Below, piece by piece: positions 1,901 to 8,375 of a stretch of 64,000 nt of DNA. Position 1 is the first letter of the stretch, and the number at the start of each line of letters is the position of its first letter. The position numbers and the translations under genes are program-made. The stretch comes from Eubacterium sp. (lineage in GTDB: Bacteria > Bacillota > Clostridia > Lachnospirales > Lachnospiraceae): positions 2,739-66,738 of the forward strand of contig JAFUPY010000004.1 of assembly GCA_017472565.1 (NCBI GenBank), given 5' to 3'. Under the pieces are notes generated by a model. The model was not told the origin of the DNA, did no database searches, and worked only from the letters and a program-made list of their open reading frames with translations.

Positions 1901-2002
1901 GATAGGTTAACCTATTTTATATAAAAGGTATTAAAGCAAAAAATGTAAAAGTAAGGGTTACTATAACGAGAGGAGAGCACGTACTGCGTGCGACATGAAA
2001 AC

Positions 2003-2284
2003 ATGGAAAAAGCAAACAAAACAATCATTACTGTAGTAGGCAAAGACACCGTTGGTATTATTGCAAAGGTTTGTACTTACCTTTCTGAAAACCAGATCAA
2101 CGTTCTTGACATTTCCCAGACAATCGTGCAGGGATATTTTAACATGATGATGATCGTTGATATGCAGGCTGCAACCAAACCATTTGCGGATTGCGCAACA
2201 GAGTTAGAATGCTTAGGCGAAGAGATCGGCGTATCTATCAAATGCCAGAGAGAAGAAATCTTCGACATGATGCACCGTATCTAA
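2003..2284 (+). CDS. ACT domain protein (UPF0237 type)
   Basis: IITVVGKDTVGIIAKV...DISQTI...EEIFDMMHRI; paired with the UPF0210 gene. Alternative GTG start at 1988. Confidence 0.9.
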   Translation: MEKANKTIITVVGKDTVGIIAKVCTYLSENQINVLDISQTIVQGYFNMMMIVDMQAATKPFADCATELECLGEEIGVSIKCQREEIFDMMHRI

Positions 2285-2318
2285 GAAAGACTTTTTTGTA
2301 ACAAGGAGTACATAAGCA

Positions 2319-3683
2319 ATGATTAATATGTTTGAAGTTAACGAGACCAATCATATGATTGAGCAGCAGAACCTGGATGTACGTACGATCACACTGGGTA
2401 TCAGCTTAATGGACTGTATCGATGCGGATCTCGGCAGATTAAATGAAAAGATTTACAACAAGATTACCACAGTTGCAAAAGACCTGGTAAAAACAGGGGA
2501 AGAAATCGAAAGAAAGTATTGTATCCCTATCGTAAATAAAAGAATTTCTATCACTCCAATTGCGCTGGTTGGCGCAGCAGCATGTAAAACATCCGCTGAC
2601 TTTGTGACAATTGCAAAGACACTGGATCGTGCAGCAAAAACCGTTGGTGTTAACTTTATCGGTGGTTATTCTGCACTGGTTTCCAAGGGCATGACAAAGG
2701 CCGATGAGCTTTTGATTCGTTCTATTCCAGAAGCATTGTCTTCCACAGATTTGATCTGCAGCTCTATCAACCTTGGTTCCACCAAGACAGGTATCAACAT
2801 GGATGCGGTCAAGCTGATGGGTGAAATCATTGTGGAAACCGCAGAATACACCAAGGACAATGACTCTATTGGATGTGCAAAACTGGTAGTATTCTGCAAT
2901 GCACCAGATGACAACCCATTCATGGCAGGTGCCTTCCACGGCGTGACAGAGGCAGATGCCATCATCAATGTTGGTGTCAGCGGTCCTGGTGTAGTAAAAA
3001 AAGCGTTAGAGCAGGTACGCGGTGAAAACTTTGAAGTTCTCTGCGAAACCATCAAGAAAACAGCTTTCAAGATCACACGAGTTGGTCAGTTGGTTGCAAA
3101 GGAAGCGTCCGAGAGAATGGGCATTCCATTCGGTATTATCGACTTATCCCTGGCTCCAACTCCGGCAGTTGGCGACAGTGTGGCTGAGATTTTAGAGGAA
3201 ATCGGTCTGGAATACGCAGGCGCGCCAGGCACAACAGCAGCACTGGCACTTCTCAATGACCAGGTGAAAAAGGGCGGTATTATGGCATCCTCCTACGTAG
3301 GCGGATTAAGTGGGGCATTTATTCCGGTCAGCGAAGACCAGGGTATGATCGATGCGGTATTAGCGAACGCGCTGACACTGGAAAAATTAGAAGCTATGAC
3401 ATGTGTATGCTCCGTAGGACTTGACATGATCGCAATCCCAGGAGATACCACACCAGCAACCATTTCCGGTATTATCGCAGACGAAATGGCCATCGGCATG
3501 ATCAACCAGAAGACAACCGCCGTTCGTCTCATTCCGGTTATTGGAAAAACCGTAGGAGATCAGGCAGAGTTCGGCGGCTTACTTGGCTATGCGCCAATTA
3601 TGCCAGTGAACAACTATTCCTGCGAAGCATTTATCAAGCGTGGCGGCAGAATCCCTGCTCCGGTACACAGCTTCAAAAACTAA
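2319..3683 (+). CDS. UPF0210/DUF711 (PFL-like) family protein
   Basis: [51 protein letters not shown] end. Confidence 0.92.
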
Positions 3684-3705
3684 TAGAATCTTAATAAATC
3701 TGTCA

Positions 3706-3734
3706 TTGACAATAAAATGTCAGAGTATTAAAAT
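3706..3734 (+). promoter_or_regulatory. Sigma-A promoter driving the riboswitch leader
   Basis: TTGACA (3706-3711), 17 bp, TAAAAT (3729-3734), just before the riboswitch P1. Confidence 0.8.
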
Positions 3735-3741
3735 AAACCTA

Positions 3742-3832
3742 ACAAAAGGGAGTAGCGGCGTATTTTATACGTTTCGAAGTCGTCATAACGGTGTTTTTAC
3801 ACCCGGTTAGAATGAAACAGCAAGACTTTTGT
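3742..3832 (+). ncRNA. yybP-ykoY manganese riboswitch
   Basis: ACAAAAG-GGAGTAGC...GTCGTCATAACGG...CCGG...AGCAAGA-CTTTTGT has the GGGAGUAGC, CGUCA and AGCAAGAC hallmark segments; P1 ACAAAAG/CTTTTGT; overlapping terminator downstream. Confidence 0.88.
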
Positions 3833-3861
3833 CATACAATGTGTGGCAGAAGTCTTTTTTT
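3822..3861 (+). terminator. Riboswitch expression-platform terminator
   Basis: AAGACTTTTGTCATAC / GTGTGGCAGAAGTCTT stem with G-U pairs and a T-run. The 5' arm overlaps the aptamer P1 3' strand, which is ON-switch logic. Confidence 0.82.
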
Positions 3862-3906
3862 CACATAATGAGATTCCCTGCCATGTAAAAGAAAAGGAGG
3901 TTTTCC

Positions 3907-4074
3907 GTGTTCTGGGATTTTATTATTTTAGCATTGATACTGGTAGGTATCGGTCTGTTCGGCAGAATATTCTTCAATATGGCATTAATCGCAACGATTT
4001 TCATGTTCTTGTTTGCTGGTTTGGTCATTATCATTGCATTTTTCTTTTTGACTATGAGTCTGGCATTGATGTAA
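3907..4074 (+). CDS. Small hydrophobic membrane protein, 55 aa (not in ORF track)
   Basis: AAGGAGG RBS at 3894-3900, GTG start; MFWDFIILALILVGIGLFGRIFFNMALIATIFMFLFAGLVIIIAFFFLTMSLALM; two hydrophobic stretches. Confidence 0.8.
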   Translation: MFWDFIILALILVGIGLFGRIFFNMALIATIFMFLFAGLVIIIAFFFLTMSLALM

Positions 4075-4152
4075 ATTGGCGAATGATTGCTGATGAAGAA
4101 TAGGATATAAAGGTATGAGATTGCTTTTAGGTTAGTTTTTAGAAGGAAAGGA

Positions 4153-6120
4153 GTGTGTGCCGCAAACATTTTAATGGCACACGATAAAGATATGTTTGGT
4201 AGAAAGACAGCAGGAGCGAAGCGTTATCGCAACTGTGAAGTGGATCCGGAAGAGTTTGTAAATGCTGGAAATCAGAAGCAGAAAAAGAAGACAAAGCGTA
4301 TGAAACGGAATAAAAGGGAAAAAACAATGTACCACAAACCGGCACAGGCCAGTGGCTGGAATGGAAAATCTATCTTAATTGCAGCCATTGTGACGGCAGT
4401 GATACTTGCTTTGATCTATTACTTTGGATTGTTTGCCATCAACCTGCATTCCCAGGGCTTTTGGGGCGTGATCATCCTGGGATGCTTCTTGTTCTTTGGC
4501 GTAAAGTCCATTGCATACTGGGCATTTTCCATGACCAAGGGCATCAGCGCCACAGAAGTAGAGTATCAGAATCATAAAAATATGAAGATGTTCTATGTGC
4601 CATTTGCCATCATTGGTATTGTGATCGTGATCTCTATCGCAGGCGCAACCATTTTCAATGCAGGAAGATATGCGTCCATCATGACAGTAGAAGAGGGCGT
4701 GTTTGAAGAGGATCTGGCAGAAACACTGAGTACAGACTCCATCGCGCTGATGGATACGTATTCCGCGCAGATGCTGGGTGACCGTGAGATTGGCTCTCTT
4801 TCCAATGTAGTCAGCCAGTATAACGTATCGGATTCTTACACACAGATTGATAAGAATGGTGCGCCACTGAAGGTAGCAGCCCTTGATTATGCCGGCTTTT
4901 TCAAATGGATCAATAACAAGTCGGAAGGGGTTCCGGGCTATGTTACCGTAAGTCCGGTCAATATGTCTGCGGAATATGTAACAAGCGAAAAAGGTATGAT
5001 TTATGTGCCATCTGCATATCTTGCACAGGATTTGTATCGCCACATTCGATTTGGGTATCCAACGGCGATTTTTGGAAATGTGCATTTTGAGATTGATGAA
5101 GAGGGCAATCCATACTATATTGCCACTGTTTATAAAAAGACCATTGCACTTTTTAATGGGCAGACAGTCAAAGGGGCGATTATCGTAGATCCAACCGATG
5201 GTTCTATGGAATACTATGATGTGGCAGATATCCCACAGTGGGCTGATGTAATCTTTCCAGGAGATCTGCTCTGTACCCAGTATGACTGGTATGGGAAGCT
5301 GTCCAATGGCTTTATCAACAGCGTTATTGGTAAAAAGGGCTGCAAACAGGTAACCCAGTATCTGGGAGATGAAGAGTCTGCAAGTGCATACGATGCGGTA
5401 CCATTGAATGATTATGGCTACATCGTAATGGGTGGAGACGTTTGGATCTATACAGGTGTAACATCTGTCAATGGTGACAGCTCCAACATCGGTTTCCTGC
5501 TGGCAAATGAAAGAACCGGTGAGACACATTATTATCCAGTAGCCGGCGCAGATGAAAAGTCTGCTATGGCAGCGGCAGAAGGGGAAGTGCAGGAAAAGGG
5601 TTATCAGGCAAGTTTCCCATCTCTGATCAATGTGGATGGTCAGCCGACCTATATCATGGTATTGAAGGATGCCAGCGGCCTGGTAAAACTGTATGCAGCG
5701 GTTAACGTGGAGCAGTACAACCTGGTAACAACCGCTACCACACAGGCAGAATGTATCCAGAAGTATCGTACTTTGATTGGTACAGGCGGACTTGAAGATG
5801 GAACTGGCAGTGATGGTTCCCAGAATATAGACCAGAATGCAGGTCAGAATGGAAACCAGAATGCAGGTCAGTCAGGTGTATCCACTCAGGAGCCAATCGT
5901 TGCAACGGATTCTAAAACAATCACCATCAGTGATATCAAGTATATTGACATTGACGGCAACACCTATGTATATCTGATTGATGGTGAACAGAATATTTAC
6001 CGTCAGAAGGTGGCGGACAACGATGCGTTGTTATTCCTGCAAGTGGGAGAAAACTTGAATATTGCTTACAATGGTAAGGAATTGGTATCCTTTGAGGTAG
6101 TTCCAGAGGTTGCCGATTAA
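4153..6120 (+). CDS. Conserved hypothetical membrane-anchored protein (about 3 N-terminal TM helices plus a large extracellular domain)
   Basis: Long ORF with host-like codon usage, hydrophobic N-terminal segments and a G/N/Q-rich linker near the C-terminus. Start uncertain (4153, 4174 or 4327). Confidence 0.8.
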   Translation: MCAANILMAHDKDMFGRKTAGAKRYRNCEVDPEEFVNAGNQKQKKKTKRMKRNKREKTMYHKPAQASGWNGKSILIAAIVTAVILALIYYFGLFAINLHSQGFWGVIILGCFLFFGVKSIAYWAFSMTKGISATEVEYQNHKNMKMFYVPFAIIGIVIVISIAGATIFNAGRYASIMTVEEGVFEEDLAETLSTDSIALMDTYSAQMLGDREIGSLSNVVSQYNVSDSYTQIDKNGAPLKVAALDYAGFFKWINNKSEGVPGYVTVSPVNMSAEYVTSEKGMIYVPSAYLAQDLYRHIRFGYPTAIFGNVHFEIDEEGNPYYIATVYKKTIALFNGQTVKGAIIVDPTDGSMEYYDVADIPQWADVIFPGDLLCTQYDWYGKLSNGFINSVIGKKGCKQVTQYLGDEESASAYDAVPLNDYGYIVMGGDVWIYTGVTSVNGDSSNIGFLLANERTGETHYYPVAGADEKSAMAAAEGEVQEKGYQASFPSLINVDGQPTYIMVLKDASGLVKLYAAVNVEQYNLVTTATTQAECIQKYRTLIGTGGLEDGTGSDGSQNIDQNAGQNGNQNAGQSGVSTQEPIVATDSKTITISDIKYIDIDGNTYVYLIDGEQNIYRQKVADNDALLFLQVGENLNIAYNGKELVSFEVVPEVAD

Positions 6121-6294: not shown

Positions 6295-6376
6295 GCATGC
6301 GTAAAGGTCACAAGTGACGCATGGATTTTAGTTAGAGATGAGTGTAAAAAGATATATTTTAAGGAGGATTTTCCCA

Positions 6377-7090
6377 ATGAAGATGATGTCAATCGAAACA
6401 GTATTAAAAGAAAATGCTTACCCAGGCCGTGGTATTATTATTGGTAAAACAAAAGACGCGACCAAGGCAGTGGCTGCTTACTTTATCATGGGCAGAAGCT
6501 CAAACAGCCGCAATCGTGTTTTCGTAGAAGACGGTGAAGGTATCCGTACACAGGCCTTTGATCCATCCAAATTAGAAGATCCAAGTCTGATCATTTACGC
6601 ACCAGTTCGCGTACTTGGAAACAAGACAATCGTAACAAACGGCGATCAGACAGATACTATTTATGAAAATATGGACATGCAGATGACATTTGAACAGTCC
6701 TTAAGATGCAGAGAGTTCGAGCCAGACGGTCCTAACTACACACCAAGAATTTCCGGTATCATGCATATTGAAAATGGCGGATTCAGCTATGCCATGTCTA
6801 TCTTAAAGAGCAACAACGGCAATCCGGAATGCTGCAATCGCTACACATTCGCATATGAAAAACCAGTAGCTGGCGAAGCTCGTTTTATTCATACATATAT
6901 GAACGATGGCAATCCACTGCCAAGCTTTGAAGGCGAACCAGAATTGGTAGATGTTGCAGATGATATCGATACTTACACAGATCTTCTCTGGAATAGCTTA
7001 AACGAAGAAAACAAAGTATCTTTGTTTGTTCGTTATATTGATATCGCAACAGGCGAATACGAAACAAGAATCGTGAATAAAAATCAGTAG
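6377..7090 (+). CDS. purO: IMP cyclohydrolase, stand-alone PurO-like
   Basis: YPGRGII, YFIMGRS, NGDQTD, EPDGPNYTPRISG, IHTY motifs; AAGGAGG RBS before ATG 6377; next to the AICAR transformylase gene. Confidence 0.88.
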   Translation: MKMMSIETVLKENAYPGRGIIIGKTKDATKAVAAYFIMGRSSNSRNRVFVEDGEGIRTQAFDPSKLEDPSLIIYAPVRVLGNKTIVTNGDQTDTIYENMDMQMTFEQSLRCREFEPDGPNYTPRISGIMHIENGGFSYAMSILKSNNGNPECCNRYTFAYEKPVAGEARFIHTYMNDGNPLPSFEGEPELVDVADDIDTYTDLLWNSLNEENKVSLFVRYIDIATGEYETRIVNKNQ

Positions 7091-7199
7091 AAATCTGTTG
7101 GTTAGTACTTAAACAAGATAGATTAGAAATATATATAGATTTCCAGTTTTAGCAGTTGAGTTGTATTGTAAAGAAACGAGTTGTAACGGAGGATTAATA

Positions 7200-8375
7200 A
7201 TGAAAGAATTGGCTTTAAAGTATGGATGTAACCCAAATCAGAAACCATCCAGAATCTATATGAATGAAGGAGAACTTCCAATCAAGATTTTATGCGGCAA
7301 ACCAGGTTATATCAACCTGTTAGATGCGTTCAATGGCTGGCAGTTGGTAAAAGAATTAAAACAGGCGACAGGACTTCCTGCTGCAACTTCTTTTAAACAT
7401 GTTTCCCCAGCCGGCGCTGCAGTAGGTCTGCCACTGACAGATGTGGAAGCAAAAATCTACTGGGTAGACGACCTTGGAGAACTATCTCCACTGGCCTGTG
7501 CCTATGCAAGAGCAAGAGGCGCTGACCGTATGTCATCCTTTGGTGATTTTATTTCTTTGTCCGATGTTTGTGATGCTGATACAGCAAAGCTGATCAAACG
7601 TGAAGTTTCTGATGGTGTAATTGCTCCGGGCTACACAGAGGAAGCGCTTGAAATCTTAAAACAGAAAAAGAATGGCAATTACAATGTGATTGAAATCGAT
7701 CCAGAGTACGTGCCAGATCCGGTAGAACACAAAGAAGTATTTGGCGTTGTATTCGAACAGGGCAGAAATGAACTGAAAATCGATAAAGATATGCTGACAA
7801 ACTTTGTGACAGAAAACAAAGAATTTCCAGAATCTGCACAAATCGACCTTATGATCGCGCTGATTACATTAAAATATACACAGTCCAACTCTGTATGCTA
7901 TGCAAAAGGCGGACAGGCTATTGGTATCGGTGCAGGACAGCAGTCCCGTATTCACTGTACACGTCTGGCAGGACAGAAGGCAGATAACTGGTTCCTTCGT
8001 CAGGCTCCACAGGTTCTGAACCTTCCATTCGTAGATGGTATCAAACGTGCAGATCGTGACAATGCCATCGACCTTTACATCGGTGAAGAATATATGGATG
8101 TACTTGCAGATGGCGCATGGGAACGTATTTTCAAGGAAAAACCACCAGTATTCACGGCAGAAGAAAAACGTGCATGGTTAGATCAGAATAAAGATGTTGC
8201 ACTTGGTTCTGATGCATTCTTCCCATTCGGTGACAATATCGAACGTGCGAAGAAGAGCGGTGTAAAATATATTGCACAGCCAGGCGGCTCTGTTCGTGAT
8301 GACAATGTAATCGAAACCTGTGATAAATACGGCATGGCAATGTGCTTTACAGGAATTCGTCTGTTCCATCACTAA
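7200..8375 (+). CDS. purH: AICAR transformylase (PurH transformylase domain only)
   Basis: LKYGCNPNQ, SFKHVSPAG, KYTQSN, GAGQQSR, SDAFFPF, QPGGSVRD, RLFHH; no N-terminal cyclohydrolase/MGS domain. Confidence 0.93.
   Translation: MKELALKYGCNPNQKPSRIYMNEGELPIKILCGKPGYINLLDAFNGWQLVKELKQATGLPAATSFKHVSPAGAAVGLPLTDVEAKIYWVDDLGELSPLACAYARARGADRMSSFGDFISLSDVCDADTAKLIKREVSDGVIAPGYTEEALEILKQKKNGNYNVIEIDPEYVPDPVEHKEVFGVVFEQGRNELKIDKDMLTNFVTENKEFPESAQIDLMIALITLKYTQSNSVCYAKGGQAIGIGAGQQSRIHCTRLAGQKADNWFLRQAPQVLNLPFVDGIKRADRDNAIDLYIGEEYMDVLADGAWERIFKEKPPVFTAEEKRAWLDQNKDVALGSDAFFPFGDNIERAKKSGVKYIAQPGGSVRDDNVIETCDKYGMAMCFTGIRLFHH

Follow-up and report, generated by a model that had tools for sequence, protein, structure and literature searches.

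The locus described here lies in a 64-kb stretch of the genome of a Eubacterium sp. of the Lachnospiraceae (contig JAFUPY010000004.1; the whole of this stretch is called the window). It comprises a promoter, a candidate riboswitch of the manganese (yybP-ykoY) class, a gene for a 55-amino acid (aa) membrane protein, and a gene for a large membrane-anchored protein of an undescribed family, all read from the + strand and in that order. The features are listed below in nucleotide (nt) positions of the window, with the evidence for each in brackets; the lines after that of the aptamer give its parts.

3706..3734, + strand: sigma-70-type promoter, with TTGACA at 3706-3711, a 17-nt spacer and TAAAAT at 3729-3734 (11/12 consensus positions).
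3742..3832, + strand: candidate three-way-junction aptamer of the yybP-ykoY type (sub-threshold Rfam matches, our own covariance model R1, covariation and motif counts).
3742-3748 with 3826-3832, + strand: helix P1.1.
3749-3754, + strand: 5' side of loop L1, GGAGUA; the conserved GGGAGUA is at 3748-3754.
3755-3756 with 3820-3821, + strand: helix P1.2.
3758-3772, + strand: P2 hairpin.
3773-3778 with 3807-3812, + strand: helix P3.2.
3780-3782 with 3804-3806, + strand: receptor pairs.
3783-3789, + strand: L3 bulge, UCAUAAC; the conserved CGUCA is at 3781-3785.
3790-3803, + strand: P3.1 hairpin.
3813-3817, + strand: UGAAA in the place of P4.
3822-3825, + strand: 3' side of L1, AAGA; the AAGAC motif is at 3822-3826.
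3822..3861, + strand: intrinsic terminator, a 16-base pair stem at 3822-3856 with a 3-nt loop and a T-run to 3861 (terminator scan).
3894-3900, + strand: ribosome-binding site AAGGAGG, 6 nt 5' of a GTG start (read from the sequence).
3907..4074, + strand: gene for the 55-aa protein, with two hydrophobic segments and a grand average of hydropathy of 2.30 (list of open reading frames, homologues and selection).
4153..6120, + strand: gene for the large membrane-anchored protein, with candidate starts at GTG 4153, ATG 4174 and ATG 4192 (list of open reading frames).

A preliminary description of this DNA, made from the sequence alone, had claimed a complete unit of promoter, aptamer, terminator, ribosome-binding site and GTG-initiated open reading frame (ORF) in 3706-4074, and we find every one of these elements at the coordinates that it gave. 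The description of the product as almost wholly hydrophobic, with a single Asp and a single Arg, is likewise correct, as D4 and R20 are the sole charged residues. All five loci of the genus (5/5) have the promoter layout TTGACA-17-TAxxAT, with P1.1 starting 8-10 nt further on; the -35 hexamer is invariant across them, and the length of the spacer is kept while its sequence varies. In the sister species, the same AAAGGAGG stands ahead of the ATG start of the small ORF.

The aptamer agrees closely with the three-helix form of the yybP-ykoY class. The riboswitch of S. pneumoniae mgtA belongs to this class, with a three-way junction, and the report on it (PMC6649816) names as features of this form an invariant UNAAA (N = U or G) in place of P4, conservation of L1 on its 5' side and an invariant AGA on its 3' side, a C and an A in L3 that coordinate the metal and do not vary, a C-G pair that takes an A-minor contact, and a terminator hairpin with a U-run. 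Each of these sequence and structure features is found in the aptamer and terminator of the window. Thus, the two RNAs have in common the three helices, UNAAA in place of P4, the same L1 and L3 motifs and the C-G receptor pair, and in both a terminator hairpin with a U-run directly follows the aptamer, with a transcriptional ON logic that is predicted for the window. The same motifs recur in related RNAs: UNAAA is UGAAA in the window and UGAAA or UUAAA at the sister loci, and U[G/U]AAA occurs in 27 of the 35 matches that we aligned from the family. All 35 of these matches have GGGAGUA and AGACUU in L1 and CGUCA in L3, as well as invariant C-G and G-C pairs (alignment columns 109/154 and 110/153). 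We assign the RNA of the window to the Mn2+ riboswitches with a three-way junction. The aptamer of one other species of the genus (G004, locus L005) has an insertion of ~45 nt in P2, with all other aptamer elements unchanged, which fits a view of P2 as a peripheral helix that tolerates change.

The covariation of paired positions argues for the same structure. We built a covariance model, R1, from the five loci of the genus and applied it to a sample of 151 genomes of the family with a cut-off of E ≤ 0.01, which yielded matches in 60 of the 151 genomes. When 35 matches were aligned to R1, standard pairs filled 95.3% of the cells, and two-sided changes were seen in 22 of the 27 pairs. These values were not attained in any of 500 shuffles, and only 8-11 such pairs were left when the partner was slid by 1-3 columns. 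The alignment was fitted to R1, which favours R1; the margin is nonetheless large. In this model-fitted alignment, compensatory changes support the helices P1.1, P1.2, P2, P3.2 and P3.1.

Behind R1 riboswitches in other genera lie the genes that one would expect for a switch that responds to divalent cations. Among 29 such loci, the gene encodes a P-type ATPase at 16, an OAD_beta protein at four (L020, L029, L031 and L037), an Na_Ca_ex protein at three, a Band_7 protein at two (L017 and L028), an Na_Pi cotransporter (together with PhoU, L021) at one and an ABC transporter (L032) at one, leaving two loci with another gene or none. The less classical cargo in these genera includes the beta subunit of a Na+-pumping decarboxylase (OAD_beta) and the SPFH/Band_7 proteins; behind the OAD_beta gene of L029 and of L037 comes a short ORF (47-48 aa) that has a single hydrophobic stretch, and the cargo at L036, which lay outside the family scan, also looks SPFH-like. 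The genome of the window itself holds a second, more divergent copy of the aptamer (contig C64, L038, 2484-2593, - strand, 30.4 bits with R1), which has a terminator and precedes a gene for a PII-type cation ATPase that runs off the end of the contig. We conclude that the riboswitch itself is ordinary, and that what is unusual and lineage-restricted is its cargo.

The terminator overlaps the aptamer in a manner expected of an expression platform. Its 5' arm (3822-3837) holds the L1 3' side and the whole 3' strand of P1.1 (3826-3832), such that 3822-3832 is shared between the two structures, and both the terminator and this overlap with P1.1 are kept at 5/5 loci of the genus. The terminator hairpin alone has a folding energy of -19.5 kcal/mol and the folds that contain it range from -29.1 to -37.2 kcal/mol, while the aptamer fold has -13.9 kcal/mol. 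Since the terminator folds are far more stable, termination is expected to be the default, and a metal-stabilised dock between L1 and L3 would be needed to hold P1.1. When metal is absent, the 3' strand of P1.1 would be captured by the terminator and transcription would stop at ~3861; when metal bridges L1 and L3, P1.1 would be held, the terminator blocked, and RNA polymerase would read on into both genes. This ON logic is the one described for the family in two reports (PMC12153347; PMC6649816). The terminator scan lists zero terminator-like sites on the + strand from 3857 to the next long ORF at 4153, and read-through is therefore expected to span both genes. We consider it probable, at roughly 70%, that 3706-3861 acts as a metal-triggered transcriptional ON switch, most likely for Mn2+, of a two-gene transcript that carries the 55-aa gene and the large gene to 6120.

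The linkage of the riboswitch to these two genes differs within the genus. Four of the five other species of the genus carry the riboswitch, each time with the large gene's orthologue directly downstream, and in the fifth, whose genome is 73% complete, we saw neither the riboswitch nor the large gene; thus, the riboswitch stands ahead of the large gene in 5/5 genomes of the genus that have it. The interval between them holds a 55-aa ORF in the window (G000) and in G002, no ORF in G003 and G005, and, in G004, a 49-aa ORF with two hydrophobic segments. Comparison of the G004 ORF with the 55-aa family gave an hhalign probability of 0.3, and homology was rejected; only one relative of the G004 ORF turned up, which is near-identical to it. 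At the 29 riboswitch loci of other genera, the first gene is never preceded by a small hydrophobic ORF that has a ribosome-binding site. The conserved partner of the riboswitch is the large membrane-anchored protein, and not the 55-aa ORF, and it is probably the large protein that the riboswitch was recruited to control. Indeed, the earlier side remark that the large gene may be co-regulated is borne out by this linkage throughout the genus and by the clear stretch ahead of the large gene, where the preliminary description had also noticed no terminator.

Beyond this genus, the riboswitch is not seen next to the large gene. R1 had no match at any of 43 loci of large-protein homologues in other genera and families (0/43), and in the 34 genomes of the family that have both the riboswitch and a relative of the large protein, the nearest pair is 89 kb apart (read from the match tables). 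As the two are never adjacent outside the genus (0/43 loci, and a distance of at least 89 kb in 34 genomes), their linkage is an innovation of the genus. Fourteen of the 43 outside loci have varied upstream neighbours, with no small hydrophobic ORF among them.

The 55-aa ORF is a real gene under purifying selection. It differs from that of the sister species at 43 positions, distributed over the three codon positions as 12/5/26, with proportions of nonsynonymous and synonymous differences (pN and pS) of 0.12 and 0.74. The adjoining large gene gives nearly the same values (pN 0.103, pS 0.733), that is, the same constraint. The identity to the sister species is 74% in the ORF, 46-57% in the spacers that flank it and 84% in the promoter and aptamer. 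Within the ORF, the strain variant in a public sequencing run consists of one synonymous change and one I-to-V change. We found five other homologues of 55 aa with 76-85% identity, and a profile search of 1.84 billion representative proteins added two further, more distant relatives of 55 and 56 aa. Over the eight relatives, which go down to 44% identity, 12 residues are invariant, including an N-terminal MFW and a central GRIF, while D4 varies among D, E and G.

The profile search found no longer form of the protein among the 1.84 billion representatives; thus, the ORF is not a stub of a longer transporter. Two points that the preliminary description raised, a test for selection and the chance that the ORF is the truncated start of a longer transporter, come out in favour of the gene: pN (0.12) is far below pS (0.74), and all eight relatives are 55-56 aa long. 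The known manganese exporter families (MntP, TerC, P-type ATPase, CDF and UPF0016), or a fragment of one of them, were considered for the 55-aa protein and rejected, as there was no profile match and no longer relative. Scans of the protein against Pfam and NCBIfam matched no family, and the ESM Atlas gave a best score of 0.85, to unnamed clusters. The small-protein family amounts to three clusters at 50% identity, all of 55-56 aa. A scan of genome contigs for further DNA copies of the gene returned only the contig of the sister species and a scan of metagenome contigs returned none, so that the linkage of the 55-aa gene to the riboswitch rests on 2 DNA loci. In these collections the family appears to be restricted to a few close lineages.

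The large protein belongs to a family of more than 3500 relatives, none of which has a Pfam domain and of which the few with names are hypothetical; the protein itself reaches the cut-off of no family in Pfam or NCBIfam. Of the genomes searched, 68 of the 151 from the family and 44 of 201 from the order hold a relative. The N-terminal tail is basic (17 K/R versus 5 D/E), the 642-aa form has hydrophobic segments at residues 55-87, 89-112 and 129-159, and an ectodomain of 487 aa is acidic (65 D/E versus 28 K/R). The mean predicted local distance difference test score of the structure models is 72 when the whole protein is modelled and 77 when the ectodomain is, and the models show a beta-rich domain. 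In the models, residues 451-517 of 642 align with PepSY-like folds (4exr_A, Z 7.0, root-mean-square deviation (rmsd) 2.1 over 62 residues; YpmB, 2gu3_A, Z 6.0), where Z values below 8 may reflect a common arrangement, and the C-terminal 567-641 are predicted to form an OB-like barrel, with Z ~9 to chains of SSB and PriB. Foldseek gave no row at E ≤ 0.001 for the model of the whole protein; a propeller fold for the ectodomain, suggested by Foldseek rows with TM ~0.2 and rmsd of 11-19 Å only, was not accepted. VIA-align of the ectodomain model gave nothing at Z ≥ 5 outside model residues 300-366, and the sequence profile of the protein found nothing in the PDB below E 0.17. The nearest ESM Atlas clusters (score 0.97) are automatically named 'CvpA family protein', and such names are no evidence of function; in Pfam scans of 41 members, CvpA was not among the 25 commonest weak matches, the commonest being DUF4271 (8/41, always below the cut-off).

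We propose that the acidic, beta-rich ectodomain, with its PepSY-like module and OB-like barrel, would lie outside the cell. The large protein is probably a component of the envelope that is supplied in step with high metal, either because it binds cations or because it depends on a metal. A cytoplasmic tail motif, Y-[KR]-N-C-E-V (window 4222-4242; YRNCEV), is kept in 5/5 orthologues of the genus and absent from the N-termini of 14 homologues of other genera; it appeared in the lineage that acquired the riboswitch. The 606-aa version of the protein given by the gene caller starts later, past this motif. Upstream of the large gene, a GGAAAGGAGUG..GCCGCA motif is conserved between the window (4140-4200) and the sister species (L002/L053). 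In the window, a GTG that overlaps this ribosome-binding-site-like motif is in frame with the large ORF, whereas in the sister species the corresponding start opens an ORF of 8 codons only, which ends before the ATG; the start of the large gene is ambiguous for this reason.

Several observations weigh against our reading of the locus as a manganese switch for these two genes, or against parts of it. At gathering scores, Rfam reports no family anywhere in the window. When 3650-4200 was scanned permissively, the list was headed by RF00080 (Manganese; 25.2 bits, E 5.1e-5 over 551 nt), which is below its gathering score of 45 bits, and RF02617 (SSRC10, Streptococcus sRNA 10; 30.5 bits, E 8.2e-4 over 551 nt), both extending over the full length of their models across 3735/3743-3861 (model 1-113 for RF02617). 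That these two come first counts in favour of a riboswitch of the manganese type. A search of the whole genome with RF00080 returned nothing at E ≤ 1. The four sister loci are likewise below the threshold of RF00080, with a best score of 24.4 bits (L002). Membership in RF02617 was rejected (30.5 bits is below its gathering score of 56), and we take this match as a likeness only, to a streptococcal leader that shares the motifs. The Rfam scan by which the preliminary description proposed to check its yybP-ykoY assignment thus missed the curated threshold; our own covariance model and the covariation support the RNA.

The sub-threshold score is weak evidence against membership, because the RF00080 model is itself insensitive: on 14 well-known control genomes, RF00080 (Rfam 15) gave a signal in 9 and passed its cut-off in 2. 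We attribute the low score to the three-way-junction form, with UNAAA in the place of P4, which is poorly fitted by the model; the RF00080 model systematically misses three-helix members. In the printed consensus of RF00080, the L1 side is unpaired and a long 3' hairpin is expected, which is missing in the RNA of the window. A comparison with four-way-junction Mn2+ riboswitches (L. lactis yoaB and E. coli mntP, as treated in PMC12153347) finds the same two-legged form in which L1 docks on L3, with P1.1 as the switch helix and the same sequences in the metal-binding loops, but the RNA of the window lacks P4, and its RF00080 score of 25.2 bits is below the gathering score of 45 bits. The E. coli alx riboswitch is also a yybP-ykoY member that is short of one of the four helices, although, according to the account of it in PMC12153347, it is P2 that alx lacks and translation on which it acts, while the RNA of the window lacks P4 and has an intrinsic terminator.

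The remaining points concern the ligand, the genes and the promoter. The mgtA report (PMC6649816) gives a tighter affinity of that aptamer for Ca2+ than for Mn2+, and a review states that some yybP variants probably sense other divalent ions (PMC7266159). If the RNA of the window were a genuine aptamer that here responds mainly to Ca2+ or another divalent cation, the locus would be a calcium or general cation stress switch, which would also suit the Na_Ca_ex genes (3/29 loci) and PII-type ATPases (16/29 loci) that the same RNA precedes in the family. We regard this as unlikely, since, according to the same report, Mn2+ activates read-through far more strongly than Ca2+ (PMC6649816), and since the L1 and L3 residues that contact the metal are unchanged (GGGAGUA and CGUCA, each 35/35). 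A weak promoter-like site, TTGACT-18-TAAATT (9/12), at 4048-4077 near the end of the small ORF could supply some expression of the large gene that is independent of the riboswitch; the corresponding hexamers of the sister species, TTTACA and TGATAA, look weaker by eye. The 55-aa ORF is missing in 2/5 species of the genus and for that reason cannot be essential to the unit, the idea that the small protein touches the large one is conjecture, and the ectodomain lacks a convincing match to a solved fold, which makes the role of the large protein a guess from location, charge and regulation.

The role of the small protein is best discussed with these points in mind. The protein would enter the membrane as a hairpin of two helices, its R20 loop facing the cytoplasm. 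Our preferred guess, from co-transcription alone, makes it a membrane accessory particular to this lineage and dispensable there, which most likely serves the large protein's three-helix anchor. The preliminary description had named, as one of two options, an oligomeric mini-exporter, and the pair of hydrophobic segments, the single acidic (D4) and single basic (R20) residues, and a position behind a class of riboswitch that usually controls exporters would suit a protein that oligomerises into a minimal Mn2+ exporter or channel. This idea found no support: D4 is not conserved (D, E or G), the helices are without polar or metal-liganding residues, there is no family match, the gene is missing in 2/5 species, with an unrelated ORF in its place in one more, and no such ORF is found at the other 29 loci. 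That the small protein is itself a transporter is unlikely, and a minimal exporter or channel of this kind is very improbable.

Modulation of a transporter, the other option of the preliminary description, may concern one encoded elsewhere in the genome. As the second copy of the riboswitch precedes the PII-type cation ATPase gene, the 55-aa gene and the ATPase would be induced together, and the small protein could regulate this ATPase, as small proteins do for other metal transporters. A precedent exists in MntS of E. coli, a small protein with a part in manganese handling that is presumed to act on a larger membrane protein and is implicated (PMC8632737) in regulating the exporter MntP. MntS differs from the 55-aa protein in that mntS, according to the same review, is normally off at high Mn while the 55-aa gene is predicted to be switched on, and a profile search found no sequence relation between the two. 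Against regulation of an ATPase, moreover, the pairing of the riboswitch with an ATPase is common (16/29 loci) while a small ORF of this kind is lacking at all 29 loci, the small-protein family is limited to three clusters, and we found no sequence or structural sign of a contact with an ATPase, all of which makes it improbable. Alternatively, the act of translation might matter and not the product, if a leader or spacer ORF kept ribosomes on the long 5' region and thereby protected or completed the transcript of the large gene. The ORF does lie between the riboswitch and its conserved cargo, G004 has a different ORF of similar size and hydrophobicity in the same position, and two other species have no ORF there. 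However, the amino acid constraint on the ORF equals that on the large gene (pN 0.12 versus 0.103), a pure spacer would not keep 12 residues invariant in 8 relatives down to 44% identity, and a gap of 79 to 118 nt separates the ORF from the candidate starts of the large gene, which makes translational coupling unlikely. We consider this explanation decidedly improbable.

Returning to the membrane accessory that we prefer, we offer tentatively, and at less than even odds, a history of the locus in which the riboswitch was recruited in one genus before a widespread surface-protein gene, and two unrelated two-helix hydrophobic ORFs arose in the new leader. The 55-aa family would since have become subject to purifying selection that matches the large gene's in strength, and would now be a metal-induced membrane subunit, in which case the leader would have been a birthplace of membrane microproteins.

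Among known systems we also considered B. subtilis YybP as a relative of either protein, and rejected it, since YybP is, from its description in PMC13598126, a 148-aa lipoprotein with DUF6376. The cargo of the window sets it apart from mgtA as well: mgtA encodes a PII-type Mn2+/Ca2+ ATPase (PMC6649816), while in the window the cargo is a 55-aa membrane protein together with a large anchored protein, neither of a known family. We found in the full-text literature no description of a small membrane protein under a manganese riboswitch, in a search that lay outside the gene-association tables of Dambach 2015 and Price 2015.

The genes on either side of the locus have no evident link to metal handling. 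Upstream (window 1988-3683) lies a pair of genes for an ACT-domain protein and a DUF711 (UPF0210) protein, and downstream (window 6338-8375) lie an IMP-cyclohydrolase-like gene and then a 404-aa ORF, the latter outside the family-library scans.

From the genomes compared here, the pairing of a three-helix riboswitch with a 55-aa gene and a large surface-anchored gene appears to be confined to this genus. The finding has a value for annotation, in that the current model of Rfam misses the three-helix form even though R1 matches 60 of the 151 genomes of the family. The large-protein family counts more than 3500 members in gut Clostridia and has neither a name nor a Pfam domain; induction at high levels of divalent metal would be the first clue to its regulation. 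The 55-aa protein, in turn, is unannotated, selected, lineage-restricted and tied to a defined signal, which may make it a tractable case for studying the origin and the work of bacterial microproteins.

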